This document shows positions 3,137-51,277 of a stretch of DNA of 51,277 nt, one piece after another. The number at the start of each line of letters is the position of its first letter. Position 1 is the stretch's first letter. The notes beneath the pieces were generated by a model, which was given only the letters and a program-made list of their open reading frames with translations, searched no databases and was not told where the DNA came from. This stretch comes from a virus (Duplodnaviria; Heunggongvirae; Uroviricota; Caudoviricetes), in IMG/VR virus record IMGVR_UViG_2851955134_000001, one strand, 5' to 3'. Made by a program: the position numbers and the translations under genes.

Positions 3137-3483
3137 TGATATCTCTCCCTGCAGGTTCGCGTATCTGGCTGGTTGCCGGTATCACCGATATGCGAAATGG
3201 CTTTAACGGCCTGGCCTCAAAAGTTCAGAACGTCCTGAAGGATGACCCGTTCTCCGGACACCTGTTCATCTTCCGCGGACGCCGGGGTGACCAGATAAAA
3301 GTGTTGTGGGCTGACAGTGACGGACTGTGCCTCTTCACCAAACGCCTGGAGCGGGGCCGCTTCGTCTGGCCGGTTACCCGTGACGGCAAGGTGCACCTTA
3401 CTCCGGCTCAGTTATCTATGCTTCTTGAAGGTATCAACTGGAAGCACCCGAAACGAACGGAACGCGCTGGCATTCGCATATAA
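3136..3483 (+). CDS. IS66-family TnpB (Orf2)
   Basis: 115 aa with sequence MISLPAGSRIWLVAGITDMRNGFNGL... characteristic of IS66 Orf2, as recalled. Confidence 0.85.
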   Translation: MISLPAGSRIWLVAGITDMRNGFNGLASKVQNVLKDDPFSGHLFIFRGRRGDQIKVLWADSDGLCLFTKRLERGRFVWPVTRDGKVHLTPAQLSMLLEGINWKHPKRTERAGIRI

Positions 3484-3502
3484 CCCGTTGTAAAGTGAGG
3501 AT

Positions 3503-5074
3503 ATGGACACCTCACTTGCTCATGAGAATGCCCGCCTGCGGGCACTGTTGCAGACGCAACAGGACACCATCCGCCAGATGGCGAAATACAACCGCCTGCT
3601 CTCACAGCGGGTGGCGGCTTATGCTTCCGAAATCAACCGGCTGAAGGCGCTGGTTGCGAAACTGCAACGTATGCAGTTCGGTAAAAGCTCAGAAAAACTT
3701 CGTGCAAAAACCGAACGGCAGATACAGGAAGCACAGGAGCGAATCAGCGCACTTCAGGAAGAAATGGCGGAAACGCTGGGTGAGCAATATGACCCGGTAC
3801 TGCCATCCGCCCTGCGCCAGTCTTCAGCCCGTAAACCGTTACCGGCCTCACTTCCCCGTGAAACCCGGGTTATCCGGCCGGAAGAGGAATGCTGTCCTGC
3901 CTGTGGTGGTGAACTCAGTTCTCTGGGATGTGATGTGTCAGAGCAACTGGAGCTTATCAGCAGCGCCTTTAAGGTTATCGAAACACAACGTCCGAAACTG
4001 GCCTGTTGCCGGTGCGACCATATCGTGCAGGCACCGGTGCCTTCAAAACCCATTGCACGCAGTTATGCCGGAGCGGGGCTCCTGGCCCATGTCGTCACCG
4101 GAAAATATGCAGACCATCTGCCGTTATACCGCCAGTCAGAGATATACCGCCGTCAGGGTGTGGAGCTGAGCCGTGCCACACTGGGGCGCTGGACTGGTGC
4201 CGTTGCTGAACTACTGGAGCCGCTGTATGACGTCCTGCGCCAGTATGTGCTGATGCCCGGTAAAGTCCATGCTGATGATATCCCCGTCCCGGTCCAGGAG
4301 CCGGGCAGCGGTAAAACCCGGACAGCCCGGCTGTGGGTCTACGTCCGTGATGACCGTAACGCCGGTTCACAGATGCCCCCGGCGGTCTGGTTCGCGTACA
4401 GTCCGGACCGGAAAGGTATCCATCCACAAAATCACCTGGCCGGTTACAGCGGTGTGCTTCAGGCCGATGCTTACGGTGGTTACCGGGCGTTATACGAATC
4501 CGGCAGAATAACGGAAGCCGCGTGTATGGCTCATGCCCGGAGAAAAATCCACGATGTGCATGCAAGAGCGCCCACCGACATCACCACGGAAGCCCTGCAG
4601 CGTATCGGTGAACTGTATGCCATCGAGGCAGAGGTCCGGGGCTGTTCAGCAGAACAGCGTCTGGCGGCAAGAAAAACCAGAGCCGCGCCACTGATGCAGT
4701 CACTGTATGACTGGATACAGCAACAGATGAAAACACTGTCGCGTCACTCAGATACGGCAAAAGCGTTCGCATACCTGCTGAAACAGTGGGATGCACTGAA
4801 CGTGTACTGCAGTAATGGCTGGGTGGAAATCGACAACAACATCGCAGAGAACGCCTTACGGGGAGTGGCCGTAGGCCGGAAAAACTGGCTCTTCGCGGGT
4901 TCCGACAGCGGTGGCGAACATGCGGCGGTGTTGTACTCGCTGATCGGCACATGCCGTCTGAACAATGTGGAGCCAGAAAAATGGCTGCGTTACGTTATTG
5001 AGCATATTCAGGACTGGCCGGCAAACCGGGTACGCGATCTGTTGCCCTGGAAAGTTGATCTGAGCTCTCAGTAA
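3503..5074 (+). CDS. IS66-family transposase (TnpC)
   Basis: 523 aa; N-terminal leucine-zipper-like region, CxxC zinc motif and C-terminal region typical of IS66 transposases. Confidence 0.9.
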
Positions 5075-6297: not shown

Positions 6298-9200
6298 TAC
6301 AGTCTCCCCAGTCGTACTCTTAACACATTGTTATCGTCATATACGTCGATTCGCTCGCCATTGAAAAACAGGCGGCCTGCGCCGGGCCTTCCTGAGTTAA
6401 TTTCAAGGCTGCCGTTTCTTGATAAACGCCACCCCGGACTACCGGAATGAAAATTATCTGACCGGATATCTCCCGTCACTCTGGCAAAATCCACGGTCAG
6501 TTTTTTCATGAAAACATCATTCATGAACAGCTGATCACCCTGAGCCACAAACAAAGGTGTTGTATTGCCATTTTCCGGGTTAATCATCGCAATACGATCT
6601 GCCTGCATCAGGATCTGACTCTGAATTCCGTCAGACGTATTTTCGATTCCGGCACCAATACCTGCAATATAGAGACGTCCATCCCGTGTCTGCTGCAGCT
6701 TCACAGCCCACATGCTGTTCAGGTTCCGGCGCGTGTCCTCCTGAACTTTCTGTATCTGCTCAATGCTGGCATTCCAGGATCCCAGTTTTTTATCCGTGCT
6801 CTGTGTGATCTGACTTCCCTTATCATCAACATACTGTCTGATCTGCGCTATCTGTCGGCTGTTCTCCTCCGTGCTCCTGCTTACTGTCTGCCGGATTTCG
6901 CTGCCCATCCTGTCAACTTTTCTGTCAACTTCCGCAATGGCCATTGACTGTTCAGCGCTCTTTTTCGCCACAACAGTACTTATTTGCGCACTTTTATCAT
7001 CAACATACTGCCTGACCTGCGCTATCTGTCGGCTGTTCTCCTCCGTGCTCCTGCTTACTGTCTGCCGGATTTCACTGCTCACGCTGTCAACTTTCCTGTC
7101 GACTTTCGCAATGGCCAGCGACTGTTCACCGCTCTTTTTCGCCACAACAGTACTTATTTGCGCACTTTTATCATCAACATACTGCCTGACCTGCGCTATC
7201 TGTCGGCTGTTCTCCTCCGTGCTCCTGCTTACTGTCTGCCGGATTTCACTGCTCACGCTGTCAACTTTCCTGTCGACTTTCGCAATGGCCAGCGACTGTT
7301 CACCGCTCTTTTTCGCCACCAGTTCCGTTATGCTGTTTTCAGACGCCGTGATTTTTTTCGTCACCTCTGCGATATCACGCTCCGCACGCTGCCTCACATC
7401 TTTCTCCAACTGCGTCATTTCGCGGTTAATCGCATTCTCCAGCTGCGTCATTTCGCGGTTAATCGCATTCTCCAGTTGCTCAACTTCAGTGCGCCGTGCA
7501 GAGGCATCAATGCGTTCATTGATCTCCCGTCCCAGATGCGTTTTATTTATCGCCCCCCTGAAAAAATTAAGGTAACCGGCAGGATCATTACTCGCCCGAC
7601 CGACTGCCTCCACGAATGCCGATTTACCGACAGTGTTAACACTGCGGATATAAAAGTAATAATCATGGCCAGGCTTAATATTCTGGCCGGAGACAAGCCA
7701 CTGAGTTCCGGTACCAAGATAACGGGCTGTGGTTTCAACCTGCCTGATATCGGTAATCCGCTTTTCCGAAAACCAGAACTCAAACTGCACCGTCGGATCA
7801 TAAACGGCAAGATGCGGCGTGGCGGTTATCTGAAAATAGCCCGGCGTCAGCTCAATCCGCGACGGCGCTGCCGGTGCGGCAATCCGGAACGATACCGACG
7901 CCGGGTCTCCCTGCTGCCCCCGGGCATTTACTGCCCGGACTGTCAGCCTGTAGTTCCCCGGCGCCAGCTGCCTGAAGCGGTATGTGGTTTCCGTCGTCCG
8001 GGCCGTGCTGACCAGCCGCTCACTGCCGTCATCCGCTGCCACGGTCAGGCGAAGCATGAAACTCACGCCTTTCACCACCTTCGGCGTGTCCCAGCGGGCC
8101 AGTACCTGATACTCCCCGCTGTCTGCGGTGACTTCGACAGTCAGGTGCTGCACTGCTGGCGGCGTGACACCATTCACCGTGCCGCTCTGGTCACCGTCAA
8201 AGTGTGCCCCGTTATCCACGATGCCCTCTTTTTCCGGTACATGCTGCACGGCAGTGATGGCATACGTGCCGTCGTCGTTCTCACGGATACTCACGCAGCG
8301 GAACAGGCGCTGGCGCAGCGTCGGCAGCTTCAGCCCCCACACGCTGTACTCGGCAACGCCGTCAGGAACCCGGCTCACTTTTACCTTCACGCCGTCGGTG
8401 ACGGACTGAACCTCCACGCTGACCGGATTGCCACTTCCGTCAACCAGGCTTATCAGCGTGGTACCGGAGGATGGCAGCGTGATTTCACGGTCGAGCGTCA
8501 GCGTCCGGGTCTGGCTGTTCACCGCCAGCACACGACCACCGGTGCTGATACCGGCATAGTCATCATCACAGATTTCAATGACATCGCCCGGTACATGGCG
8601 AAGCCCTTCAGCACCCACGCTGAAATCCACGGTCTGCGTCTCCAGCAGTTCTGTTTTAATCAGCCACAGCCCGGCGCGGTGTGCCTGCCCCCGGCTGGTA
8701 CAGCCAAAGGCATCCATCTTCGTGACGTTACGACCGTAACGGGCAATGGCCTGCGTATCTTCAACAAGCTCTGTCGCCGTCTCCTGGCCGTTATCCGGGT
8801 CACTCCAGTTCACCTCAACGGCATTATGGCGGTCCTTCAGGGCGCTGAAGCTGTAGCGGAACGGCGCGCCATCATCCGGCATCACCACATTACTGCGGTT
8901 ATAGGTCCACACCTTATCCGACGGTCGGTCCTGCACGAACGTCAGCGTCTGCCCGTTCCATACCGGCATACAGCGCATCGCCGAGCAGAAATCACTGAGC
9001 ACATCCCACGCCTTACGCTGTGTGGTCAGCCAGGCATTACAGGTGATGCGCGGCTCCGTGCCGCCAAAGCCGTCCGGCACTGACTGGTCGCAGTACTGGC
9101 CGATGACATACAGCGCCCATTTATCCACATCCGCTGCGCCAACACGTTTCCCCATGCCGTAGCGCGGATGGGTCAGCATATCCCACAGACACCAGGCCGG

Positions 9201-10013
9201 GTTGTTGCTGTATGCCGGTTTAAACGTTCCGTCCCAGATACCGCTGTATTGCCGCGTCTGCGGGTTATAGTTCGACGGCACCTGCAGAATGCGCCCGCGC
9301 AGATGATAATTACGGCTCACCTGCTGGCTGCCGAACTGCTCCGAATCCACCTGCACACCGACCAGTGCCGTGTTCGGGTAGCACTGTTTCACATCGATAA
9401 TTTCGGTGTATGACGACCAGAGCGTTTTGTTCTGCAGCTGGTCTGTGGTGCTGTCCGGCGTCATCCTGCGCATCCGGATACTGAACGGGCGCGGCGGCAG
9501 GTTATCCACCACCACCGAAGCCAGATACTGCGAGGTGGTTTTTCCCTTAATGGTGATGTCTTTTTCCGTTAACCAGCGACCGTTACGCTGTATCTGAACC
9601 AGCAGGCGGACTTCCGACGGATTCCGGTCCCCCTTTGAGGTGGTTTCCACCAGTGCCTGCACACCGAAGGTCAGGCGCAGACGGTCGATGTTTGCCGATG
9701 TGATGGTCCGGGTAATCGGCGTGTCGTACTTCACTTCCGTACCCAGCACCGTCTCGGAGCCGGAGGATTCAAATCCCTCCGGCGGCGTCTGCTCCTGCTC
9801 ACCGGCCCGGAATACCACCGTGACGCCGGATATATTGGTATTCCCCTCACTGTCCAGCACCGGCGTACCGTTCAGCAGCACGCTTTTTAATCCATCCACC
9901 GGTCCTTGTATCGGCCCTTCGCTGATGACATCGATCACACTCAGCAACTGCGTGGACTTCAGGTTGTCCTTCGCTTCGCGCGGGGTATGCCCCTTACTGC
10001 TGCCTTTACCCAT
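6297..10013 (-). CDS. J: tail tip / host specificity protein J with divergent C-terminal region
   Basis: First ~1000 aa closely match recalled lambda gpJ ([24 protein letters not shown]...); C-terminal part contains a coiled-coil repeat insertion and a short divergent end. Confidence 0.9.
6795..7320. repeat. three tandem ~174/177-bp repeats inside J (58-aa coiled-coil units)
   Basis: gctatctgtcggctgttctcctccgtgctcctgcttactgtctgccggatttc recurs at 6847, 7021 and 7198; a shorter 30-bp duplication follows at 7421/7451. Confidence 0.85.
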
Positions 10014-31711: not shown

Positions 31712-32764
31712 TTATTTCCCCACCAGCTCGTTTATCTCTTTCACTGTCTGATTAAACCGCTCTGACTCAAGCTCAACACCTAAGGCCCGACGCCCCAGCG
31801 CCATTGCTGCTTTTATTGTGGAACCGGATCCCATAAAAAAATCAGCAACCAGATCACCTGGTCGACTACTGGCATTGATTATTTGCCTGAGCATATCCGC
31901 CGGTTTCTCACACGGATGTTTACCCGTGTAGAACTGAACGGGTTTATGCATCCAGACATCGGTATAAGGCACGGAGACTGATACGGAAAAATAGCGCCGG
32001 AGAGATTTAAACTCATCCAGCAATTCAGAATATTTGCGATTCAGTGAATCATAAGATGCCACCAGCTGGTGGTGTGGTTGTTCCAGTTGTTGTTCCTGAA
32101 ACTTCTCTGCCGCTATACGGGAAAACAGTGCCTGTAACTTCCGATAGTCAGCCTCATTCGGCAACTGCCACTGACTGGCACCAAACCAGTGGGAAACCAT
32201 ATTTTTCTTACCTGTGGCTTCGGCAATTTGTTTTGCCGTTATACCCAGTTCGGCACGAGCATCCCTGAAATACGAAATCAGCGGTGCCATTATGTGCTGT
32301 TTGAGTTCCCTTTCTTTTGCTGCATAGCCGTCACTTTTGCCGCGATATGGCCCCTGGTAATGTTCAGCAAACAGAACGCGCTCTGTGGCAGGAAAATATG
32401 CGCGCAGACTTTCTTTATTGCACCCGTTCCATCGTCCGGACGGCTTCGCCCAGATAATGTGGTTCAGCACATTAAAGCGTTCACGCATCATGATTTCGGT
32501 ATCAGATGCCAGACGATGACCGCAGAACAGGTAAAGGCTTCCGGCAGGTTTTAACACCCGCCAGAACTGCGCCAGACACTGATCCAGCCATTTCAGGTAA
32601 TCATCATCGCCCTTCCACTGGTTATCCCAGCCTTCGTGTTTCACTTTAAAGTATGGCGGGTCTGTGACAATCAGATCGACAGAGTTTTCCGGTAAGGTCT
32701 GGATAAATTCCAGGCAATCAGCGTTGATTAACTCACAACTGGATATTTTTACAGTATTAGCCAT
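31712..32764 (-). CDS. DNA methyltransferase (N6-adenine/N4-cytosine family, DPPY motif)
   Basis: DPPY at residues ~35-38 and a C-terminal FxGxG-type AdoMet motif (DFFMGSGST); 350 aa. Confidence 0.8.
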
Positions 32765-32914
32765 AGATCAATAAGCGCTTCTCTGATAGGCTCATACCGC
32801 TTTTGCGCAAAGCAGATGGGCCTGAGGTTTGCTTGTGACCCCAACGCATGAGCAGATGGCTGGCAGGTGCCGCTAACACCCACCAGCCGCCCATTACCAC
32901 AAATTAAAAAGCCT

Positions 32915-33136
32915 TCACTGCGGAAGGCGTCTGTAACAACCGAACTGATAATCTGCCAGGCCCGCCATAACAAGCTGGGTCAGTATTAACTGGCAGCATT
33001 CGCGTGAAAGGTAAGTATTCTGCGCAATCTCCCCGACGGTCGCCGGTTCGGTGACGCTTAATTCATTAAGCACCACTCTGGCGGTTTCTGTCATATCTTG
33101 CTGTTTTAGCATGTCTTTTTCCCTTCTGGTTAACAT
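32915..33136 (-). CDS. small winged-helix-like protein (start uncertain)
   Basis: 73 aa from the internal ATG at 33136 (the track ORF starts at a TTG); HTH-like TVGEIAQNTYLSRECCQLILTQL. Confidence 0.35.
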   Translation of the reverse strand: MLTRREKDMLKQQDMTETARVVLNELSVTEPATVGEIAQNTYLSRECCQLILTQLVMAGLADYQFGCYRRLPQ

Positions 33137-33233
33137 GACATACCAATAACTCTTGTCTAAAAAGCCAGCAAGCTGAAAGACCTGTATTCGCAACCACCAG
33201 CGCGTTTAACGTCCTGTGCTGTTTTTCGGACAC

Positions 33234-33258
33234 AAAAAAACCCGCACGGCGGCGGGTT
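33234..33258 (-). terminator. intrinsic terminator (tR'-like) downstream of the late promoter
   Basis: Minus-strand hairpin ACCCGC-CGCCGT-GCGGGT followed by seven T residues. Confidence 0.65.
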
Positions 33259-33305
33259 GTAAAAAATCTTTTAACGTCAGGTATAAAACGCCCATCGTTA
33301 GTGCG

Positions 33306-33333
33306 AATTTACCACAGATTCGGGAAAAATCAA
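33306..33333 (-). promoter_or_regulatory. candidate late promoter pR' (-35 TTGATT, 16-bp spacer, -10 TAAATT)
   Basis: Sigma70-like hexamers on the minus strand directly downstream of the Q-like gene and ~50 nt upstream of the terminator. Confidence 0.4.
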
Positions 33334-33338
33334 CAACA

Positions 33339-34160
33339 CTATCGCGTTACCCTCTTCAACTGCCGCTCCGCCCATGACTCTTCAATGTCAAACCGAACCA
33401 CCAGCGTATCGTAAAAACGCTTCACTGATTTTTTCCACGTATCAAGAGTGATAGCGCTCGTCACTTTGCATATGGCATTAAACGCCTCTGTTGACGGTAA
33501 TCTTTCATAGCCACGACCACCACAACGCTGGCAGTCTCTGATAACAGGCATACCACGTTTTACCGACTCTTCACGATGAATGGCGACACCACGCCCACGG
33601 CAATCATTACAGGCGGTGGAGACCTCACCCTTTCCCCCGCATTCAGGACAGGCAACTTTTACCACTTCCCGGACTTTTTTCCATTCTTCCCAGTAAGACG
33701 GATACACACCCTTTGTACACTTTGCCCATACCGGCGGTTTACCATCCGGATACTGGACCTTGTTTGTAAAAACTACGCTTTCAATAAATTTTTTCCCACC
33801 GCAACAAGGGCACTGTTTTTTACTCGCTGCACTACGGGCATAATCCTCAAAAGCGTACGAAGCCATAATGCGCATCACTGTCGGTTTTATTTCTGCCGGA
33901 AGTTTTCTCAACGCCGCCACGCGATCGCACCGACTGAGTGCATAATCTGCCAGTAATTCTGTTGCCCGCGTTCTGTCATTCATACTGATGCCCATTTTCC
34001 CCAGGAACGCAGAAAATCCCATCTCAGCCCGGTTTTGTGTCATACCCTGCGCAGCCATCACATCAGTGATGCTCAGCGCATCTTTTGACGTCGAGACGGA
34101 TGCATCAGTCAGGCCTGGCGATTTTGGGGAATAGTATTTCGGTAAATCTTCCAGTTTCAT
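33339..34160 (-). CDS. putative late antiterminator Q with DnaJ-like CxxCxGxG zinc-finger repeats
   Basis: Positioned between rusA and the pR'/tR' signals; contains CPCCGGKK, CPECGGKG, CNDCRGRG and CQRCGGRG motifs. Confidence 0.5.
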   Translation of the reverse strand: MKLEDLPKYYSPKSPGLTDASVSTSKDALSITDVMAAQGMTQNRAEMGFSAFLGKMGISMNDRTRATELLADYALSRCDRVAALRKLPAEIKPTVMRIMASYAFEDYARSAASKKQCPCCGGKKFIESVVFTNKVQYPDGKPPVWAKCTKGVYPSYWEEWKKVREVVKVACPECGGKGEVSTACNDCRGRGVAIHREESVKRGMPVIRDCQRCGGRGYERLPSTEAFNAICKVTSAITLDTWKKSVKRFYDTLVVRFDIEESWAERQLKRVTR

Positions 34161-34531
34161 TTTTGGACCTCCCCGTCATGCATTATTTCGTAAATCTTCA
34201 CGCCCAGCCGCCCACCAGGAACAGGCTGACCGCGCACAATATTGATTTCATCAAACTGCTCGTCGTCTATGAGAAGTCCGGCATGCGTCAGCGCATCCAG
34301 TGGTGCTTTCAGGATATTGTCCAGGTCACGACGGCGCTTATCCGGTGGCTCTGCAATAATCTTTATCGCCAGCCTTCCGGACAGGTTTAATTTCAGCCGC
34401 TGCTGGCGAACAATAAGTGCCACATCACGGCGATAACACTCACCGGCTTTTGATACAAAATATGTGCTGCCACGACGTCGCCAGTAGGTGTTCACCGTCG
34501 GCGGGTAAGGCAAAACAAACTCTATACGCAT
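34157..34531 (-). CDS. rusA: Holliday junction resolvase RusA
   Basis: 124 aa; RusA-like DKRRRDLDN region; nin-region position. Confidence 0.8.
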   Translation of the reverse strand: MRIEFVLPYPPTVNTYWRRRGSTYFVSKAGECYRRDVALIVRQQRLKLNLSGRLAIKIIAEPPDKRRRDLDNILKAPLDALTHAGLLIDDEQFDEINIVRGQPVPGGRLGVKIYEIMHDGEVQK

Positions 34532-34543
34532 CAGTAACCTCTT

Positions 34544-35590
34544 TTACCCGAGCACGCCGGTTGCAAAGGCGTGATCAAGAAAACGAAAAATTAAATCAAT
34601 CTGGGAACCATGCTTTTCTTCAAATGCCAGCGGATCAGCATGAAGTTCATTGTGATGCTCCCGGCACAGCGGTAGCGTAAAAATATCGTGGGATTTTGTT
34701 CCCATTCCGCCCTGACCATGACCAATCAGGTGATGGGGATCGTCGGCTGGCTTACCACAACACGCACACGGCTGTGTCTTTACCCAGCGCGTATATTTCT
34801 CATTTACCCAACGGCGACGTTTAGGTCGCTTCATGAAAGATTCAGGAGACTCCGGATCAACGGCAATGCTGACCACCGTCTTTTCCTGTGGTGGGTTTTG
34901 CTGGTGGGCGTGAGGCAGCGGCGCAAGATTTTTTGTGCGCTGCTTCAGTATGCTGGTGGCGGTCTGCTCTCCCGGTACGATGTCGCTTTCACGGTATACA
35001 GAGCGGATTTTTTCCGCACGCAACCCCAGCGAACGACGTAATACCGCTTCCGGTAGCGCGTCCGCCACCTGATTGCGGACCGCCCACCAGGATAATTCAG
35101 CCAGAGATAATTCACGCTCCTGCGTACCGCTTATTGCGTGACCGATGACGTCAATCATCCATGCTGACAGGTTTTGATGAGCAAGTTGCTCGAGTGATTC
35201 GGATGTCTGGTCACGCAGCTGGTTGTCGCAGTGCCAGCACAACACCATCGCGCCGGTACCGTAACGATGTATGACGATTTCACTGTGATGATAGTCACCA
35301 TGAGGCCACTGGCAGGATTTGACATGACGCAACAGCCAGTCAGACAGTGCCCCAGCGCCGCCAACAGCACGAATCACCCGATCATCGCTGAAAAATGGCA
35401 GTAATGATTTATCCTCCGCCAGCGGCTGGCGAACGGCAGGGACGACTCCGGATGGCAGGCCGCACATACTTTTCGGTTCCGGCTCCACCAGCACTCGAGG
35501 ATTGTGAAATACCGGCATGGATTCACGACCGGGCTTAAGGACCACCAGCCCGAGTTCCGGTACCAGAACAGGTCGAAGTAATACCCGCAC
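34544..35590 (-). CDS. DUF968-like nin-region protein with C-terminal HNH-like motif
   Basis: GTG start with GGAGGT RBS; C-terminal CACCGKPADDPHHLIGHG...LCREHHNELH. Confidence 0.55.
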   Translation of the reverse strand: MRVLLRPVLVPELGLVVLKPGRESMPVFHNPRVLVEPEPKSMCGLPSGVVPAVRQPLAEDKSLLPFFSDDRVIRAVGGAGALSDWLLRHVKSCQWPHGDYHHSEIVIHRYGTGAMVLCWHCDNQLRDQTSESLEQLAHQNLSAWMIDVIGHAISGTQERELSLAELSWWAVRNQVADALPEAVLRRSLGLRAEKIRSVYRESDIVPGEQTATSILKQRTKNLAPLPHAHQQNPPQEKTVVSIAVDPESPESFMKRPKRRRWVNEKYTRWVKTQPCACCGKPADDPHHLIGHGQGGMGTKSHDIFTLPLCREHHNELHADPLAFEEKHGSQIDLIFRFLDHAFATGVLG

Positions 35591-36984: not shown

Positions 36985-37650
36985 TCACTCCTTCTCTTCT
37001 TTACCGTAGTGGAGTTGGCCAATTTTTATAAGAGGGCGTCCCTGAGATTTGCGGTGTAGATTGGTATCGCGCAGAGAATACACACAGCCACAATATTCCT
37101 GCTGATAGAATTTTTCGCGCTTGCTGATTTCAATCATACGGGACGAGCCGCCCTGCTTGCGCCAGTTATAATCCCAGTACACCATACCCGGATAATGCGC
37201 AACAGCTCGCCGCCCACACTCGTTAACCTGCTGCATATTTTTCCAGCGTGAAATGCCCAGTGAACTGCTGATCACACTGAAACCATTTTCAGCAGCGTAT
37301 AACGCTGTCCGCTCAAAACGCATGTCAAAACACATGGTACAACGGATCCCCCTCTCAGGCTCCCATTCCATTCCTTTGGCACGTTCAAACCAGTTGTCGG
37401 TGTCGTAATCAGCATCGATAAACGGCACGCCGTGTTGTTCAGCAAAGCGAATATTTTCATCCTTACGAATTAAATACTCTTTCTGAGGATGAATGTTCGG
37501 GTTGTAGAAAAAGATGGTGTAGTCGATTCCCGAGGCCTGAAGCGCCTCCATCACTTCACCGGAACATGGAGCACAGCAAGAGTGCAGTAGTAGTTTGTTT
37601 GCCCCGTTCGGGAGCTCCAATTTAGGCCGTTTGAAATCAGCAATAGTCAT
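36985..37650 (-). CDS. QueH-like (DUF208) putative epoxyqueuosine reductase
   Basis: [11 protein letters not shown] motif near the N-terminus plus downstream RCTMC and EYCGCVYS cysteine motifs, recalled as DUF208/QueH signatures. Confidence 0.6.
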
Positions 37651-40604: not shown

Positions 40605-41030
40605 TCAGTGCATCACCGCAGCATTACCCGCCGGGCCACCACGATTCATCTGATTGAAACCGGCGATTGCCACTGCGATAAAATCATCCGCGTCTCTCAC
40701 CAGCCGTTCTCGTGTCTCCAGCAGCTCCCTGAAATAGGCTGAGCTGTGGCTACGCATTCTGGCCACCAGCAAAGGCGGCATTGCCTTTTCGATCGCTGGT
40801 AGTAACGCCTGAATTTTTTCAACCGCATCAGGGGTGTCTTTCTCCACCCAGCGGAAAATTTTCTGGGTATTACGGGCCAGGGCTTCCGGATGGCTGTCGT
40901 CGTACAGCTCAGGAAACGTCATGCCCAGCTCGAAATAAACCCTGGTTATCTCGGCTGCCGGAACTTTTTCACCATCCGGACGCGACCAGGCATTCATCGC
41001 CATGCGGATGTGTTCATGCTTGATTTTCAT
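40605..41030 (-). CDS. YdaT-like protein (cII-position regulator of Rac-type phages)
   Basis: Starts MKIKHEHI... like recalled Rac YdaT; follows the cro-like gene. Confidence 0.6.
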   Translation of the reverse strand: MKIKHEHIRMAMNAWSRPDGEKVPAAEITRVYFELGMTFPELYDDSHPEALARNTQKIFRWVEKDTPDAVEKIQALLPAIEKAMPPLLVARMRSHSSAYFRELLETRERLVRDADDFIAVAIAGFNQMNRGGPAGNAAVMH

Positions 41031-42616: not shown

Positions 42617-43500
42617 TAGCTAACCAACGAAGCTAAGGTTGGTAATTAAGGAGTTCTCCACGGGTGAGGTGGAGTACGTGCGCCGGACACGGGTGAGCAT
42701 CCGGCACTGACAGTTTACTGAAAGGATATTTCCCTGAAAAGTCAGACCATAACGCGAAAGCGCACGGCGAGGTAGCTGGTTCATAGATAGCCTGTCGTTA
42801 AATTTTCGTCGACCGTGCGCTTCCGGTTGTGGCAACCCGCGAAATGGTGCGGCGGTAAGTATGGCGGGGTTATTTCTTCCCCGTTGAGGACACCGGGTTG
42901 TCAGGTTGACCATGCGCCTGAGTGACAACCCCGCTGCAACGCCATCTGTTATCAATTTTCTGGTGACGTTTGGCGGTATCAGTTTTACTCCGTGACTGCT
43001 CTGCCGCCCTTTTTAAAGTGAATTTTGTGATGTGGTGAATGCGGCTGATCGCACGTGGAACAGTTAAAACCAAAAACAGTGTTATGGGTGGATTCTCTGT
43101 ATCCGGCGTTAATTGTTAACTGGTTAACGTCACCTGGAGGCACCCTGGAGGCACCAGGCACCGCATCAACAAAGTTCACTTCGGTGATGAAAGGTAAGAG
43201 AAAATGTTGAATGTAGCTATTGAAAACCAGTACGGGTGGAATTATAGTGCACCTGCACCTCATAAACCGGGTGCCGGGCGTGGAAACCCGAAGTCAAACG
43301 TAGCGCACAACCGCGCTCAGGCGGTTTTTTTATGCGTGAAGCACAGCCACATTCAGATTATGGTGGGGCGTGCAGGGCAGCCGCAAGGCTGGCCGGGTTC
43401 TACGTTGACCGGTATTTCCACCCCTGTACGTCTCACCACCATTATGGTCGTGGAAAGCCTCGGTGGTGAGTTATCAATACTCAACGTGGAGGCTGCCATT
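42617..43500 (+). other. ~880-bp ORF-free, hairpin-rich segment inside the early-left operon (candidate structured RNA / regulatory leader)
   Basis: No plus-strand ORF of 60 aa or more; multiple stable stems, e.g. gggttgtca...tgacaaccc, gcgcacgg...ccgtgcgc, cgggg-ttatttctt-ccccg. Confidence 0.4.
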
Positions 43501-44055
43501 ATGGCTACTACCCTTACCCTTTCTCACCCTGACGTAACCATTGAAAATGGTCGCGCTGTCACTACGTCTGTTGCGATCGCGGAATTCTTTGGCAAGCGTC
43601 ACGACAATGTTATCCAAAAAATAAAATTACTGGACTGCTCCGCTGAGTTCACTGCCCTTAATTTTAAGGCGAGCGAATACACCGACTCAACAGGACGCAA
43701 ACTCCCTATGTACCAAATCACCAAAAACGGCTTCGTTTTCCTTGTGATGGGCTTCACGGGCAAAAAGGCCGCTGCATTCAAGGAAGCCTACATTGCCGAG
43801 TTCGACCGCATGGAGGAAGAACTGCGCCGGAATAACACCACACCCGCTGACAAAATAATCCCGGGTGATGGCCGCACCCTGGTTATCCGCTTCGACGAAC
43901 ACGGCTACATCAAATTCACCGAAACCGTTCCTGATGGCGCACTGGTCTGTACTCTGGATACTTTCCGTTTTTATCTGGAAAAGCAGGGATGGACTCTCAT
44001 AAACCGGGGCGCAATTAAAAATATGACCGTCGAGCAGTTGCTGAGTATTAAATAG
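43501..44055 (+). CDS. Rha-family phage regulatory protein
   Basis: ATG at 43501 with GTGGAGG RBS; motif ENGRAVTTSVAIAEFFGKRHDNVIQKI typical of Rha N-terminal domain. Confidence 0.65.
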   Translation: MATTLTLSHPDVTIENGRAVTTSVAIAEFFGKRHDNVIQKIKLLDCSAEFTALNFKASEYTDSTGRKLPMYQITKNGFVFLVMGFTGKKAAAFKEAYIAEFDRMEEELRRNNTTPADKIIPGDGRTLVIRFDEHGYIKFTETVPDGALVCTLDTFRFYLEKQGWTLINRGAIKNMTVEQLLSIK

Positions 44056-44100: not shown

Positions 44101-44322
44101 ATGATTGCTCATCACTTCGGAACCGATGAAATACCACGCCAGTGCGTCACTCCCGGCGATTACGTTATTTACGAAGGCCGGACATATATCGCCTCGGCAA
44201 ACAATATCGAAAAGCAAAAACTTTATATCCGTGATTTCACTACAAAAACATGCATTACTGACCGCATGATTAAAGTCTTCCTCGGTCGTGATGGTTTACC
44301 TGTAAAGGCGGAGGCATGGTGA
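44101..44322 (+). CDS. hypothetical protein
   Basis: AAGGAG RBS 8 nt upstream; 73 aa. Confidence 0.45.
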
Positions 44323-44441: not shown

Positions 44442-46895
44442 ATGAGCACTGATAAAGAAACTTTTGCGCTATATTGCGAAGCTAAAAATGACAAAGTCAG
44501 AAAACGCCTTGGGATTAAAGGTGGTTTTTACTGGACTACAGCAAAAAAATTATCTGTTGCCATCTCCCGCTGCATTACCGCAATGGATGATAACGATTAT
44601 GATGAAGACGACTTTAAAAAACCTGTTCGCGTCCATTTGCCCGTTGTTGATGACCTTCCACCGGAAGGCGTGTTTGATACCGAATTCTGTAACCGGTATG
44701 AAAAAGGCGGCGAAGATGGCATCACAATGATATTTATCGCGCCTCCGCCATCCGCGCAGGACAAACCAGCCAGCACTGACAACACCAATGTTAATGGCGA
44801 AGACATGACTGAGATTGAGGAGAATATGCTTCTGCCGGTTTCAGGTCAGATTCTGCCTGTTCGCTGGCTGGCGCAACACGGCGGCGAAAAACCAGTAACG
44901 CACGTTTCGCGGGATGAACTGCGCTCATTACATAACGCACAGGAAGAAAAACTTCCCGCCGTTACCGCGCTGGCCATCTCAAATAAAGCAGCGCAACTCG
45001 AACCGCTGGAGATTCGGGATTTGTACAAACTGGTGCGGGACACTGACAAAGTTTTTCCCGCCCCCGTAAATTCAGACCTGGGACTGATGACCTCCTTCAT
45101 CGAAGCATACCTGGACGCTGACTACACTGATCGTGGTCTGCTTACAAAAGAGTGGATGAAAGGAAATCGTGTTTCTCGCATCAGTCGCACACCATCCGGC
45201 GCTAACGCTGGCGGCGGTATCCTTACCGATCGCGGCGAAGGTTTTGTGCATGATAATGCGTCAATGGCATTCGATGTTGCTACAGGAAAACTGGCTCGTT
45301 CGATGGATGTGGATATTTACAACATGCATCCTTCACATACCAGACGTGTTAACGAAATTATCGCAGAAAATGATCCCTGTTTCTCCGTCTTCCTTAAGGC
45401 TTTTCTGAACATGCCAGGCGGGATGGATTATTCCCGCGCCATCGTGGTTGCCTCCGTGAAAGAAGCACCGGTTGGTATAGAGGCTATGCCCCAGCGCGTC
45501 ACCGAATACCTGAATAAAGTGCTGACCGAAACCGATCATGCCAACCCTGATCCGGAAATCGTGGATATTGCCTGCGGTCGTTCCTCTGCCCCAATGCCGC
45601 AGCGTGTAACAGAAGAAGGAAAACAGGATGATGAAGAAAAACCGCAACCGTCTGGCGCAATGGCAGATGAACAGCCAACGACTGAAACAGTGGAACCGGA
45701 TACAACTGAACATCATCCGGACACGCAGCCGCTGGATGCTCAGCCGCAGGTGAATTCTGTTGATGCGAAATATCAGAAACTGCGGGCAGAACTCCATGAA
45801 GCTAGGAAAAACATTCCGCCCAAAAATCCTGTCGATGCAGACAAATTACTGGCGGCCTCGCGTGGTGAGTTCGTTGAAGGGATTAGCGACCCGAATGATC
45901 TGAAATGGGTTAAGGGAGTCCAGACTCGCGATTCAGTGAACCAGAACCAGCAAGAAACGGAACAGAACGACCAGAAAGCGGAACAAAACAGCCAAAATGC
46001 GTTACAAAACGAGCCAGAAACGAAACAACCTGAGCCAGTAGCGCAACAGGAACCGGAAAAAGTCTGCACCGCCTGCGGTCAGACCAGCGGCGGCAACTGC
46101 CCTGATTGTGGCTCAGTAATGGGTGACGCAACATACCAGGAAACATTCAATGGAGAAAATCAGGCTGAATCTCAGGAAAAAAATCCGGAGGAAACGGAAG
46201 GCACTGAGCATCCGCACAAGGAGAACACTGGCGGCGCTCAGGGCCACGCCAGCGATAATAAAACTGGCGAAACAGAAAATTCCTTAATTAAGATGAACGG
46301 TCATCGTGAAATCACATCCACCAGCAGAGTATGGAATCACCTGTCAGTCGACCTTGAAACAATGGGAGCCAACACCAATGCACCCATAGTAGTTATTGGT
46401 GCGGTTTTCTTCGACCCGGAAACAGGGGAAATCGGGCCGGTATTTTATATCGTTATCAGCCTGACTGACGCAATGAATACAGGGGCTGTTCCTGATGGTG
46501 GCACCATCGAATGGTGGCTGAAGCAGTCCAGCGAAGCCAGAGCTGCCATTTTAACTGACCAGGTAAAAATGAAAGATGCCCTTTTGCGTTTTCGGCAATT
46601 CGTCAATGAACACTCTGATGAAAAATTCGTTCAGGTGTGGGGTAATGGCGCAACGTTCGATAACGCAATTTTGCGCACCTCATACGAACGTCTGGACATC
46701 CCCTGTCCGTGGCATTACAGCAACGATCGTGATGTACGCACAATCGTTGAGATGGGGAAAATCACAGACTTCAATGCCAGAAGCGTAATTCCATTCGAAG
46801 GCGTGCGCCATAATGCTCTGGATGACGCTCTTCACCAGGCAAAATACGTAACAGCCACTATACAAAAACTGATCCCGAATCAGGCTGATTTTTAA
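44442..46895 (+). CDS. large exonuclease: RecE-like N-terminal region, zinc ribbon, C-terminal DEDDh 3'-5' exonuclease domain
   Basis: C-terminal motifs DLET (Exo I), [12 protein letters not shown] (Exo II), HNALDDALH (Exo III); [16 protein letters not shown] zinc ribbon; N-terminal part resembles recalled RecE-type exodeoxyribonuclease VIII. Confidence 0.7.
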
Positions 46896-46953: not shown

Positions 46954-47157
46954 ATGAGCAGCTTATTTTTAACCGAAGATGAATTGCTAATATTAACGGG
47001 CTGCAAATATGCAAGCCACCAGCGAAAATGGTTAATGGAAAACGGGCTTCCGTTCTATACCAATCGTAGTGGCAAACCGATTGTCAGCCGGGATCTATTT
47101 ACCTGCAATAAAACTTTACCACCACGCGAGGTAGAGCCGAATTTTGGTGCGATCTGA
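46954..47157 (+). CDS. excisionase-like protein
   Basis: 67 aa; stop overlaps the int start (TGATG); immediately upstream of int. Confidence 0.55.
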   Translation: MSSLFLTEDELLILTGCKYASHQRKWLMENGLPFYTNRSGKPIVSRDLFTCNKTLPPREVEPNFGAI

Positions 47158-48182
47158 TGGGAAGACGAAGGAAAAATCCTGAACACGAAAAATTACCTCC
47201 AAATGTATACCCAAATAAATATAGTTATGTATGGAAACCAACATCCAGAGAATCTGTAACACTAACCGCCATCAAGGATGGTTTAGCTGCTTTATGGAAA
47301 AAGTATGAGGAAACTGTAAATAATCGCGATCGTGCAATGACATTCGGTCGCTTGTGGGAAAAATTCCTCGCCAGCGCCTGTTACAGTGACCTTAGTCCAA
47401 GAACACAAAAAGATTATCTGCAACATCAAAAAAAGTTGCTTGCCGTATTCGGTAAGGTACCAGCGGATTCCATAAAACCAGAACACATCCGTCGATACAT
47501 GGACAAAAGAGGGGAACAGAGTAAAACGCAAGCCAACCATGAAAAAAGCAGTATGTCCCGTGTTTACAGTTGGGGGTATGAGCGAGGGTACGTGAAGGCT
47601 AACCCATGTGCAGGTGTAAGTAAATTCAAGGCCAAAAACCGCGAACGATATGTAACCGACAAAGAATACCAGGCAGTATTAAGCGTGGCACCCCTTCCTG
47701 TTTTTATCGCAATGGAAATTGCCTATCTGTGTGCAGCGAGGGTTTCCGATGTGTTATCGCTGAAATGGGAGCAGATTGGAAACGACGGGATCTTTATCCA
47801 GCAAGGGAAAACAGGGAAAAAACAGATAAAAGCATGGAGTCCACGATTACAGGCAGCGGTCGAAAAAGCAAAACAGTTACCAAAATCCGCCTATGTGATC
47901 AGCAATCAATACGGCAACCGATATATGTACAAAGGCTTTAACGAAATGTGGGTAGAAGCAAGAAATCGCGCAGGCAAAGTTTCAGGTATTTTAACCGACT
48001 TCACCTTTCATGATCTGAAGGCGAAAGGAATTTCAGACTATGAAGGAAGCAGCCGGGATAAGCAACTTTTCTCTGGTCACAAAACCGAAGGGCAAGTGCT
48101 AATCTATGACCGGAAGGTTAAAGTTTCACCAACACTTGATGTCCCGTTACCTGAAAATATTCCAAGAAAATATTCCAAGTAA
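47157..48182 (+). CDS. tyrosine integrase (lambda Int-like)
   Basis: N-terminus MGRRRKNPEHEKLPPNVY like lambda Int MGRRRSHERRDLPPNLY; C-terminal ...FHDLKAKG... and LIYDRK Tyr region; adjacent to a tRNA. Confidence 0.85.
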   Translation: MGRRRKNPEHEKLPPNVYPNKYSYVWKPTSRESVTLTAIKDGLAALWKKYEETVNNRDRAMTFGRLWEKFLASACYSDLSPRTQKDYLQHQKKLLAVFGKVPADSIKPEHIRRYMDKRGEQSKTQANHEKSSMSRVYSWGYERGYVKANPCAGVSKFKAKNRERYVTDKEYQAVLSVAPLPVFIAMEIAYLCAARVSDVLSLKWEQIGNDGIFIQQGKTGKKQIKAWSPRLQAAVEKAKQLPKSAYVISNQYGNRYMYKGFNEMWVEARNRAGKVSGILTDFTFHDLKAKGISDYEGSSRDKQLFSGHKTEGQVLIYDRKVKVSPTLDVPLPENIPRKYSK

Positions 48183-48234: not shown

Positions 48235-48324
48235 TGGCGGAGAGAGGGGGATTTGAACCCCCGGTGGAGTTGCCCCCACTCCGGTTTTCGAGACCGGTCC
48301 GTTCAGCCGCTCCGGCATCTCTCC
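48235..48324 (-). tRNA. serU: tRNA-Ser (anticodon CGA)
   Basis: Reverse complement reads GGAGAGATGCCGGAGCGGCTGAACGGACCGGTCTCGAAAACCGG...GGTTCAAATCCCCCTCTCTCCGCCA with long variable arm and CGA anticodon; K-12 serU neighbours mtfA. Confidence 0.9.
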
Positions 48325-49537: not shown

Positions 49538-50524
49538 TGGAGTGACCCCCATATATCCCTTACCGACGCAAAAATCCGCACCCTCAAGCCTTCTGATAAA
49601 CCCTTTAAAGTCTCCGATTCTCACAGTCTGTATCTGCGGGTCAAGCCGGGTGGCTCCCGCCACTGGTATCTCAAATACCGTATTAGCGGTAAAGAATCCC
49701 GCATTGCGCTGGGTGCCTATCCAGCCATCTCCCTGTCTGATGCGCGACAGCAACGTGAAGGTATCCGTAAAATGCTGGCGCTGAATATCAACCCGGTACA
49801 GCAGCGGGCTGCTGTACGTGGCTCACGAACACCGGAGAAAGTTTTTAAAAACGTGGCGCTGGCGTGGCATAAAAGTAACAGGAAATGGTCGCAGAACACC
49901 GCCGACCGTCTGCTTGCCAGCCTGAACAATCACATCTTTCCGGTCATCGGGAACCTACCTGTATCAGAACTTAAACCCCGTCATTTCATTGACCTGCAGA
50001 AAGGGATCGAGGAAAAAGGTCTGCTGGAGGTTGCGTCCCGCACACGGCAGCACCTGAGTAACATAATACGCCATGCGGTCCATCAGGAGTTAATCGATAC
50101 GAACCCTGCAGCAAACCTTGGCGGCGTGACCACACCTCCTGTCAGACGGCACTATCCTGCCCTGCCGCTGGAGCGGCTGCCTGAACTGCTTGAACGTATT
50201 GGGGCATATCATCAGGGCCGTGAACTGACCCGGCATGCCGTTCTGCTGATGCTGCATGTGTTCATTCGCTCCAGTGAACTGCGTTTCGCCCGCTGGTCAG
50301 AGATTGATTTCACAAACCGAGTCTGGACGATACCCGCGACGCGAGAACCCATTATTGGCGTGCATTATTCCGGCCGCGGGGCAAAAATGCGAATGCCGCA
50401 TATCGTCCCCCTCTCAGAACAGTCCATCGCCATTCTGAAACAGATTAAGGATATCACCGGTAATAATGAACTGATCTTCCCCGGCGACCATAACCCGTAT
50501 AAGCCAATGTGTGAAAACACGGTC
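49538..50524 (+). pseudogene. P4-type integrase remnant beside tRNA-Asn: no canonical start codon and 3' end truncated by IS1
   Basis: Frame encodes ...SLTDAKIRTLKPSDKPFKVSDSHSLYLRVKPGGSRHWYLKYRISGK... (P4-integrase-like N-terminus); ATA where the ATG is expected (49553); ORF runs into the IS1 left end at 50525. Confidence 0.65.
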
Positions 50525-50579
50525 GGTGATGCTGCCAACTTACTGATTTAGTGTATGATGGTGTTTTTGAGGTGCTCCA

Positions 50580-50855
50580 GTGGCTTCCATTTCCATCAGA
50601 TGTCCTTCCTGCTCCGCTACTGAAGGCGTGGTGCGTAACGGCAAAAGCACTGCCGGACATCAGCGCTATCTCTGCTCTCACTGCCGTAAAACATGGCAAC
50701 TGCAGTTCACTTACACCGCTTCTCAACCCGGTACGCACCAGAAAATCATTGATATGGCCATGAATGGCGTTGGATGCCGGGCAACAGCCCGCATTATGGG
50801 CATTGGCCTCAACACGATTTTACGTCACTTAAAAAACTCAGGCCGCAGTCGGTAA
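50580..50855 (+). CDS. insA: IS1 InsA
   Basis: 91 aa [23 protein letters not shown]... Confidence 0.9.
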
Positions 50856-51277
50856 CCTCGCGCATACAGCCGGGCAGTGACGTCATCGTCTGCGCGGAAA
50901 TGGACGAACAGTGGGGCTATGTCGGGGCTAAATCGCGCCAGCGCTGGCTGTTTTACGCGTATGACAGGCTCCGGAAGACGGTTGTTGCGCACGTATTCGG
51001 TGAACGCACTATGGCGACGCTGGGGCGTCTTATGAGCCTGCTGTCACCCTTTGACGTGGTGATATGGATGACGGATGGCTGGCCGCTGTATGAATCCCGC
51101 CTGAAGGGAAAGCTGCACGTAATCAGCAAGCGATATACGCAGCGAATTGAGCGGCATAACCTGAATCTGAGGCAGCACCTGGCACGGCTGGGACGGAAGT
51201 CGCTGTCGTTCTCAAAATCGGTGGAGCTGCATGACAAAGTCATCGGGCATTATCTGAACATAAAACACTATCAATAA
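50774..51277 (+). CDS. insB: IS1 InsB (expressed as InsAB' via -1 frameshift at the A6C motif)
   Basis: 167-aa ORF overlapping insA; ttaaaaaac slippery run near 50827. Confidence 0.9.

Follow-up and report, generated by a model that had tools for sequence, protein, structure and literature searches.

What does a RecE-type protein do in a prophage that carries no RecT, when its catalytic end is not that of RecE? The question is raised by the DNA deposited as IMG/VR virus record IMGVR_UViG_2851955134_000001, a stretch of 51,277 nucleotides (hereafter the window), which holds a lambda-like prophage and, in its early-left operon, a complete gene for a protein of 817 amino acids (aa). The first-pass annotation of the DNA had described this protein as an exonuclease combining a RecE-like N-terminal region and zinc ribbon with a DnaQ-like DEDDh domain, had found no RecT/Bet partner for it, and had suggested a domain-swapped recombination or anti-defence nuclease. 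The gene starts with ATG, preceded about 10 nt upstream by a GAGG that makes a plausible ribosome-binding site, and its DNA is 99.9% identical to that of a RefSeq gene whose product, WP_077581043.1, is named 'exonuclease'. Coordinates of the gene, its parts and its neighbours are collected in Table 1.

Domain matches, alignment to RecE and the positions of the catalytic motifs all agree with the composite structure proposed. The Pfam family PF06630 (Exonuc_VIII) matches aa 57-189 (E = 1e-26), and PF16473 (Rv2179c-like) matches the C-terminal domain over profile positions 1-175 of 177, at 222.9 bits against a cut-off of 27. By BLASTP, aa 58-616 are 70% identical to residues 50-591 of K-12 RecE (559 residues), zinc ribbon and acidic linkers included; the NCBIfam equivalog model of exonuclease VIII, NF007259, aligns aa 1-616 with positions 1-602 of its 877, scoring 1027.9 bits, below its cut-off of 1269. 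There the resemblance ends. BLASTP gave no alignment of the window protein to the nuclease part of RecE (592-866), tblastn with RecE 596-866 found no match in the window nor in the 64 IMG/VR loci described below, and DNA homology to Rac recE stops at position 46271, in the linker ahead of the nuclease domain that has been crystallised (PDB 3H4R). Beyond it lie the three DEDDh motifs, DLET at 637-640, a second motif at 733-744 and HNALDDALH at 790-798; the predicted catalytic residues D637, E639, D740, H790 and D795 are invariant in an alignment with T4 DexA and six homologues. The claim that the C-terminus carries a DEDDh domain rather than the RecE nuclease core thus stands, and the domain-swap reading is supported: the PD-(D/E)XK nuclease of RecE has been replaced by a DEDDh exonuclease, the junction falling exactly at the linker that precedes the RecE nuclease domain. 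Neither this domain pattern nor the gene context is due to chance.

The window protein lacks the PD-(D/E)XK 5'-3' nuclease (RecE 606-866) that defines exonuclease VIII activity and binds RecT, and its predicted polarity is the opposite, 3'-5'. The RecT contact is a matter of report: work by Muyrers in 2000 is said to have shown that RecT binds the C-terminal nuclease domain of RecE.

Structure prediction confirms the nature of the catalytic end. In AlphaFold2 (AF2) models aa 630-813 adopt a confident RNase H-like DnaQ fold, with a predicted local distance difference test score (pLDDT) of about 80, and a Foldseek search of the PDB with the C-terminal domain returned DexA (8KEL) first (E = 1e-10), then REXO2, Orn and RNase T, at probability 1.00. 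T4 DexA (exonuclease A; 8KEL/8KEN) was also the sole match in a sequence search of the PDB, in which the RecE nuclease structure was not matched. DexA is thus the best match to this domain by both sequence (phmmer, E = 1e-7) and fold (TM score about 0.7 on the target), and all its DEDDh catalytic residues are conserved. The two proteins are only about 30% identical, however, and DexA, which comes from a virulent phage, stands alone at 227 aa and has extra loops, whereas the window protein adds an N-terminal extension of 620 aa; the residues of DexA proposed to recognise 5-hydroxymethylcytosine (5hmC) are not clearly conserved in it.

The N-terminal extension needed more sequences. A first AF2 run on the full-length protein, with a multiple alignment of 29 near-identical sequences, left the N-terminal 628 residues below a pLDDT of 50; the N-terminal model was remade with a 62-sequence alignment built from 50%-identity representatives. 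In this model aa 1-470 have a mean pLDDT of 84.6 and comprise an alpha/beta domain, a helical-rich domain and a disordered acidic linker. The two domains are confidently folded and have no known structural relative. Both are acidic (isoelectric point about 5), which speaks against simple DNA binding, and the first 620 or so residues contain no recognisable catalytic signature. The elements most conserved in the N-terminal region are the near-invariant R231 and R332 and a Gly-rich loop motif at aa 249-264. Only 7 of 81 diverged representatives have the zinc ribbon, which is thus no core element of the family.

The N-terminal module does not belong to one kind of nuclease. An exhaustive search with aa 1-616 yielded 229 clusters at 50% identity. 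Representatives 450 aa or longer number 81, of which 19 terminate in the RecE nuclease, 14 in the DEDDh domain and 48 in neither. By its distribution, then, the RecE-type N-terminal module is a portable one, joined to a 5'-3' nuclease, to a 3'-5' nuclease or to none. The middle module is common to RecE, to the form found here (RecE-N::DEDDh) and to a second long form described below (YdfE-N::DEDDh), and in tblastn it matches every long form among the IMG/VR loci regardless of N-terminal type; to judge by these alignments it is a shuffling joint. Ten of the homologues with neither nuclease (P0249, P0276, P0287, P0302, P0316, P0334, P0385, P0332, P0328 and P0375) have C-terminal tails of 270-410 residues that are unlike both nucleases; Pfam assigned no further domain to these tails and revealed no third type of nuclease. 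Such homologues may lack a nuclease altogether, as 'RecE-2' proteins do, or carry a third module that has escaped recognition; proteins of the former kind were noted by Zheng et al. (Zheng, Casjens, Davidson, Amundsen and Smith, Genome Res 2025, PMC12315714) and fit the group with neither nuclease.

The gene is under ordinary purifying selection. We compared it pairwise with six diverged genes of the same architecture (from loci L014, L016, L036, L052, L058 and L059); the ratio of nonsynonymous to synonymous substitution rates (dN/dS) is 0.13-0.46 in every segment, with 0.15-0.35 in the N-terminal domains and 0.13-0.23 in the DEDDh domain. The synonymous rate dS itself jumps from segment to segment, taking the values 0.20, 1.00, 0.16, 0.64 and 1.22 along the gene in the comparison with L058. 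Such abrupt changes indicate repeated intragenic recombination at module boundaries.

The impression that this is an unusual one-off did not hold. Among 5426 complete E. coli genomes, copies covering 80% or more of the gene are present in at least 1018; megablast detects the DEDDh-domain DNA in 1441, and the segment comprising the recE nuclease and recT in 1750. Proteins of about 814 aa with the PF06630 plus PF16473 architecture fill the list of homologues, under the RefSeq product names 'exonuclease' or '3'-5' exonuclease' and, for many copies, '3'-5' exoribonuclease'. The finding is real, but the gene is abundant and already catalogued, if not always aptly: thousands of database entries that call the RecE-N::DEDDh architecture 'exodeoxyribonuclease VIII' or 'RecE family' are misnamed as to catalytic domain and predicted polarity.

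The 64 IMG/VR loci fall into three architectures: (a) the RecE-N type seen here, (b) a long YdfE-N type and (c) a stand-alone protein of about 189 aa. In type (b), which is also common and is represented by the 'exonuclease' of EDL933 (WP_000048551.1) and of phage Evi and by the 'exodeoxyribonuclease' of CP-933P, the protein has about the same length (812-827 aa), a middle module and DEDDh domain 66-89% identical to those of the window protein and the same slot, between dicB-ydfD or kil and xis-int; it differs in its first 464 or so residues, which begin MSKVFICAAIPDE, are unrelated to RecE and match no Pfam family. The K-12 Qin pseudogene ydfE (b1577; L081:4079-4999) is an IS2-truncated N-terminal remnant of an approximately 826-aa gene of this type, 86% identical over 256 aa, so that K-12 has relics or relatives of both long nucleases, recE in Rac and ydfE' in Qin. 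Nothing joining ydfE with an exonuclease was found in the literature.

Salmonella and Klebsiella prophages, as well as phages LLS and mEp460, have true stand-alone copies, 54-62% identical to the C-terminal domain. These too close the early-left operon, immediately ahead of xis-int, in phages with no recognisable Rec module; they consist of the catalytic domain alone, which in the window gene and all E. coli Rac/Qin-like copies is preceded by an N-terminus of RecE or YdfE type. In the Salmonella and Klebsiella prophages L005-L011, YfdP and DUF2303 (YfdQ) recur in the early-left operons with the stand-alone exonuclease, some of which also have a DndB-like or ParB-like gene; LLS has the same gene set. 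A 183-aa E. coli protein that looked like a further stand-alone form (P0003, 90% identical) was set aside: such sequences are fragments of the long gene produced by frameshifts or contig edges, and are not evidence that the N-terminus is dispensable.

The position of the gene is as constant as its architecture is variable. As the first-pass annotation had it, xis and int follow directly; the early-left operon of the window prophage reads small open reading frames (ORFs), Ash/Rha, Kil, exonuclease, xis (DUF4224), int, and that of Rac kilR-ydaE-racC-recE-recT-ralR-rcbA-xisR-intR. RecE (b1350, 866 aa) thus sits in the same slot, after Kil and ahead of xis-int, with the difference that the window gene has no recT, ralR or rcbA downstream. 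Since it occupies the slot of recE-recT-ralR-rcbA, the window gene is an allelic alternative to RecET, not a broken copy of it. The same arrangement is found in GF60, EDL933 and phage Evi, and throughout the E. coli-type IMG/VR loci (L013-L063) the order is kil or dicB-ydfD, exonuclease, xis, int wherever the flanks are long enough; int was matched by the queries used in 36 of these loci, the others having another integrase type or ending early.

The absence of an annealing partner was likewise confirmed. No tblastn match was found to RecT anywhere in the window or to Bet or Erf in its prophage part, and no homologue of lambda Exo, Gam or Abc2 was found in the window. None of the 20 early-region ORFs matches an annealing-protein Pfam family, though Sak4-type and other annealing proteins were not searched for explicitly, and the small co-directional ORFs upstream of the gene show no Pfam signature of a single-strand annealing protein (SSAP). 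The survey of co-occurrence gave the same result: up to 9 kb upstream, none of the 64 IMG/VR loci has a tblastn match to RecT, Bet, Erf, Exo, Gam, Abc2 or the RecE nuclease. The system does not look like a SynExo pair, having no annealing gene that we could find in the operon and a nuclease which, if polarity follows family, is of the 3'-5' DEDDh class and not 5'-3'.

The missing RecT, on which the first-pass annotation had remarked, has an ordinary, published explanation. About a fifth of lambdoid phages have no Rec module; in most of these Chi is frequent and so oriented as to act on RecBCD that enters from the right end, and growth of their type phage, LLS, is aided by RecBCD (PMC12315714). 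In its Chi sites the window prophage fits this description. The window contains 14 copies of the Chi octamer GCTGGTGG where 2.1 are expected; none of 100 shuffled sequences reached 14. Of these copies, 11 are on the minus strand, which is the 'top' strand in lambda orientation and the one on which Chi is active for RecBCD entering from the right end of cos. Eleven of the 14, on both strands, lie in a cluster 4.5-10 kb from cos, itself located near 25.5-26 kb; the remaining sites are at 40763, 46318 and 47016, and there are none in the 30 kb of late genes. The 11 active and 3 opposite sites of the window prophage compare with 20 and 3 in LLS, which has no Rec module, and with 12 and 3 in Evi, which has a type (b) exonuclease and no SSAP. 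LLS also resembles the window prophage in its gene 34, a 'DnaQ-like exonuclease' 54.5% identical to the C-terminal domain and placed directly ahead of xis-int. Most likely, then, the prophage resembles the 'no Rec module, high Chi' class of LLS, which it matches in the lack of a module and in Chi abundance and orientation and with which it would share dependence on RecBCD; and RecT is most likely missing because this type of phage relies on host RecBCD and Chi.

These observations suggest a function. We consider it probable, by a modest measure, that the gene encodes a modular nuclease of the early-left operon of a Rac/Qin-like lambdoid prophage, with a DEDDh catalytic part and an accessory RecE N-terminus, in a phage that uses host RecBCD for recombination. 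The C-terminal domain would be a metal-dependent 3'-5' exonuclease of the DexA/Rv2179c-like family, acting most likely on DNA 3' ends; the RecE-type N-terminal module would not cut, serving instead to target or scaffold the nuclease through protein-protein contact or oligomerisation. A phage with oriented Chi sites and neither annealing protein nor RecBCD inhibitor would most likely obtain the recombination needed for its replication and packaging from host RecBCD-RecA, as LLS does, leaving the exonuclease to act alone during induction or lytic growth, when it would be expressed from the early-left promoter. It might trim or degrade DNA at 3' ends, modulate host recombination or, like DexA, salvage nucleotides.

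Several observations weigh against this proposal. DnaQ-type nuclease genes near int, which Zheng et al. noted and did not count as Rec-module genes, occur also in phages that do have Rec modules, and 3'-5' exonucleases usually antagonise recombination, so that a positive role in RecBCD-dependent growth is not obvious (PMC12315714). One distant metagenomic locus (L072), with a stand-alone DEDDh protein at 43% identity, encodes an ERF-family protein and SSB about 6 kb upstream in the same direction, as Pfam searches showed; the DEDDh domain is therefore not always without a Rec module, and since the ERF protein had been missed by tblastn, the screen described above is blind to diverged annealing proteins. 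The Chi contrast is not clean either. A control phage with recE-recT, Rac-SA53 (L086, 823-50000), has 8 active Chi sites and none opposite, against about 1.2 expected, all in the late half of its genome, so that phages of this lineage with a Rec module are not free of Chi; the use of Chi density to discriminate recET from DEDDh phages is weakened accordingly, the difference being quantitative and not absolute. The Pfam family of the catalytic domain is named after an exoribonuclease, Rv2179c, making an RNA substrate possible, and scans for promoters and terminators around the gene gave results no better than with shuffled sequence.

Other functions can be proposed for a DexA-like nuclease in a prophage. 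One is defence or superinfection exclusion of the 'HREX' type, in which 5hmC-containing DNA of T-even phages is degraded and host DNA spared; for this gene we regard it as unlikely. The precedent is EcD (HAK9828821.1), an E. coli DexA-family DEDDh exonuclease that, when plasmid-borne, is reported to degrade the DNA of T4 while leaving unmodified DNA intact, and to confer protection from this phage (PMC12153337); for bacterial relatives of the window protein this is the sole experimental claim. The window domain is itself a DexA homologue and prophages often carry exclusion genes; yet this gene lies deep in a repressed early-left operon, beside kil and xis-int; EcD stands alone, and its defence activity was shown on a plasmid only. 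The equivalent genes, recE of Rac and the dicB operon of Qin, are not expressed in lysogens. EcD is, moreover, a more distant protein, beginning MIDTET, and is not among the 120 closest homologues of the window protein. In the alignment with DexA the residues proposed to recognise 5hmC, W152 and D169, face S760 and I774, in a stretch where the alignment is gapped and uncertain, with a Trp, W757, only 3 residues away; D90, the tetramer-forming Asp of DexA, faces a retained D712, unlike the Ala of EcD. A search of PADLOC-DB v2 matched the window protein to no family at E <= 0.01.

More doubtful still is an anti-defence nuclease, made early in infection to destroy retron multicopy single-stranded DNA, reverse-transcribed cDNA or linear oligonucleotide signals, with the N-terminus aiming it at a defence complex. 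Lambdoid early-left operons do carry counter-defence genes such as ral and gam, the acidic N-terminal module could bind host proteins, and the variable N-termini (RecE-N or YdfE-N) recall the diversification of an arms race. The dN/dS values are those of purifying and not of diversifying selection, however, RecE, a bona fide recombination nuclease, makes use of the same N-terminal module, and no supporting literature was found. We give an equally low place to an exoribonuclease acting, like Rv2179c, on 3' ends of host or phage RNA. The full name of PF16473, '3'-5' exoribonuclease Rv2179c-like', and the RefSeq names to the same effect favour it, as do the structural neighbours after DexA; but the closest solved relative by sequence and by fold is a DNA exonuclease, RNase T and REXO2 cut DNA too, and fusion partner and genomic slot are those of a DNA recombination nuclease.

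The function of the RecE N-terminal domain is listed as unknown, and the domain is dispensable for RecT-dependent recombination (PMC11611040); in full-length RecE the N-terminal region boosts linear-linear recombination, according to Fu 2012 as cited in the same paper. Its retention whole, in the recE slot, could be taken to mean that the window protein is half of a two-component recombinase whose DEDDh domain resects DNA for an annealing protein that either escapes recognition or comes in trans from the host or another prophage. In some phages, such as epsilon34, DnaQ-like nucleases are counted by Zheng et al. as genuine members of the Rec module (PMC12315714), locus L072 has its ERF and SSB genes in the same operon direction, and the window contains a RusA gene. 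We nonetheless hold this very unlikely: the domain of RecE that binds RecT is precisely the one missing, no SSAP was found in the window or in the E. coli-type loci, and 3'-5' polarity would produce 5' tails, at odds with the substrate logic of SynExo pairs. Finally, a non-functional chimera, in which a deletion fused a recE remnant to an unrelated downstream gene, is effectively refuted. In its favour are the decay seen in the early regions of prophages, the K-12 pseudogene ydfE, which is a remnant of this kind from the sister form, and frameshifts that split some database copies. Here, however, the reading frame is unbroken and none of the five catalytic residues is changed; dN/dS stays well under 1 in every module when diverged copies are compared, the full length is kept in more than 1000 genomes, and the same fusion recurs in 14 representatives below 50% identity.

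Returning to the modular nuclease that we prefer, a bolder version of it would make the RecE N-terminus an autonomous adaptor of orphan fold, put by phages on nucleases of either polarity or used by itself, and the DEDDh form a dedicated helper of the host-RecBCD/Chi replication strategy in Rec-less lambdoid phages. The DEDDh form might for instance dock on RecBCD, SSB or RecA and trim 3' ends at Chi-processed or packaging ends. This is a long shot; were it correct, phages would have a third kind of recombination function, one that needs no annealase and is found in roughly one in four E. coli genomes. The first 600 or so residues of RecE have been a blank for decades, although the literature has full-length RecE as needed for efficient linear-linear recombination and direct cloning, and the present locus offers a concrete handle on their binding partners. 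It also opens the question whether Rec-less lambdoid phages, in their dependence on RecBCD, are helped by DnaQ-like exonucleases. To what was already on record we add the confident orphan fold of the RecE N-terminus, its pairing with nuclease classes of opposite polarity, the conserved slot and the link to Chi-rich, Rec-less prophages.

Table 1. Features of the exonuclease gene and its surroundings. Positions are those of the window, except in the last row, where they refer to locus L072.
Feature	Position	Strand	Evidence
Complete 817-aa gene: RecE-type N-terminal module, linker/zinc ribbon and predicted DEDDh 3'-5' exonuclease	44442-46895	+	ORF list, domain matches
Small alpha/beta N-terminal domain, aa 1-103	44442-44750	+	
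Helical-rich core of RecE N-terminal region, aa 118-393	44793-45620	+	
Acidic Pro/Gln-rich disordered linker, aa 394-437	45621-45752	+	pLDDT <50, composition
Middle module, aa 465-616, mostly low-complexity	45834-46289	+	tblastn, RecE alignment
CxxC-x8-CxxC zinc ribbon, aa 542-556	46065-46109	+	motif; conserved in K-12 RecE
DEDDh (Rv2179c-like/DexA-like) domain, aa 632-805	46335-46856	+	PF16473, E = 3e-66
Kil (FtsZ inhibitor), 89% identical to Rac KilR; upstream neighbour	44101-44322	+	
Excisionase-like protein, xis (DUF4224), 58 bp 3' of the exonuclease gene	46954-47157	+	Pfam
Tyrosine integrase, int	47157-48182	+	
tRNA-Ser(CGA), abutting the prophage end	48235-48324	-	
Chi cluster, 11 of 14 sites (8 of the 11 on the - strand); lysis/Q/nin region, right end of virion map	30328-35549	-	
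RusA	34157-34531		Pfam of early-region ORFs
L072: ERF-family protein, SSB and stand-alone DEDDh exonuclease among them	1839-2549, 3302-3715, 9004-9573		

The host element is otherwise a recognisable lambda-like prophage. Its late genes, on the minus strand, include Nu1, gpA terminase, portal, J, tail fibre, Rz and lysozyme; the early-right genes include replication proteins, QueH, DUF968, RusA, Q and a DNA methylase; the immunity region is of the YdaS/YdaT type, and the tRNA gene at the integration site adjoins mtfA. The Ash/Rha gene of the early-left operon is a 283-aa ORF (43204-44055, +) with an Ash-family part at aa 14-108 and a Rha domain at aa 120-205, called a Rha family regulator in RefSeq.

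The QueH homologue (epoxyqueuosine reductase; 36985-37650, -; E = 1e-65) lies in the nin-like region and is unusual cargo for a lambdoid phage; it may be linked to queuosine or 7-deazaguanine metabolism. An insertion sequence (IS) with a DDE_Tnp_1 transposase (26464-27444, -) is inserted between the lysis genes and Nu1/cos, and this copy of the prophage may for that reason be packaging-impaired. Past the prophage, after tRNA-Asn, an integrase ORF stops abruptly where IS1-like insA/insB ORFs begin (49772-50551 and 50580-51277, +).

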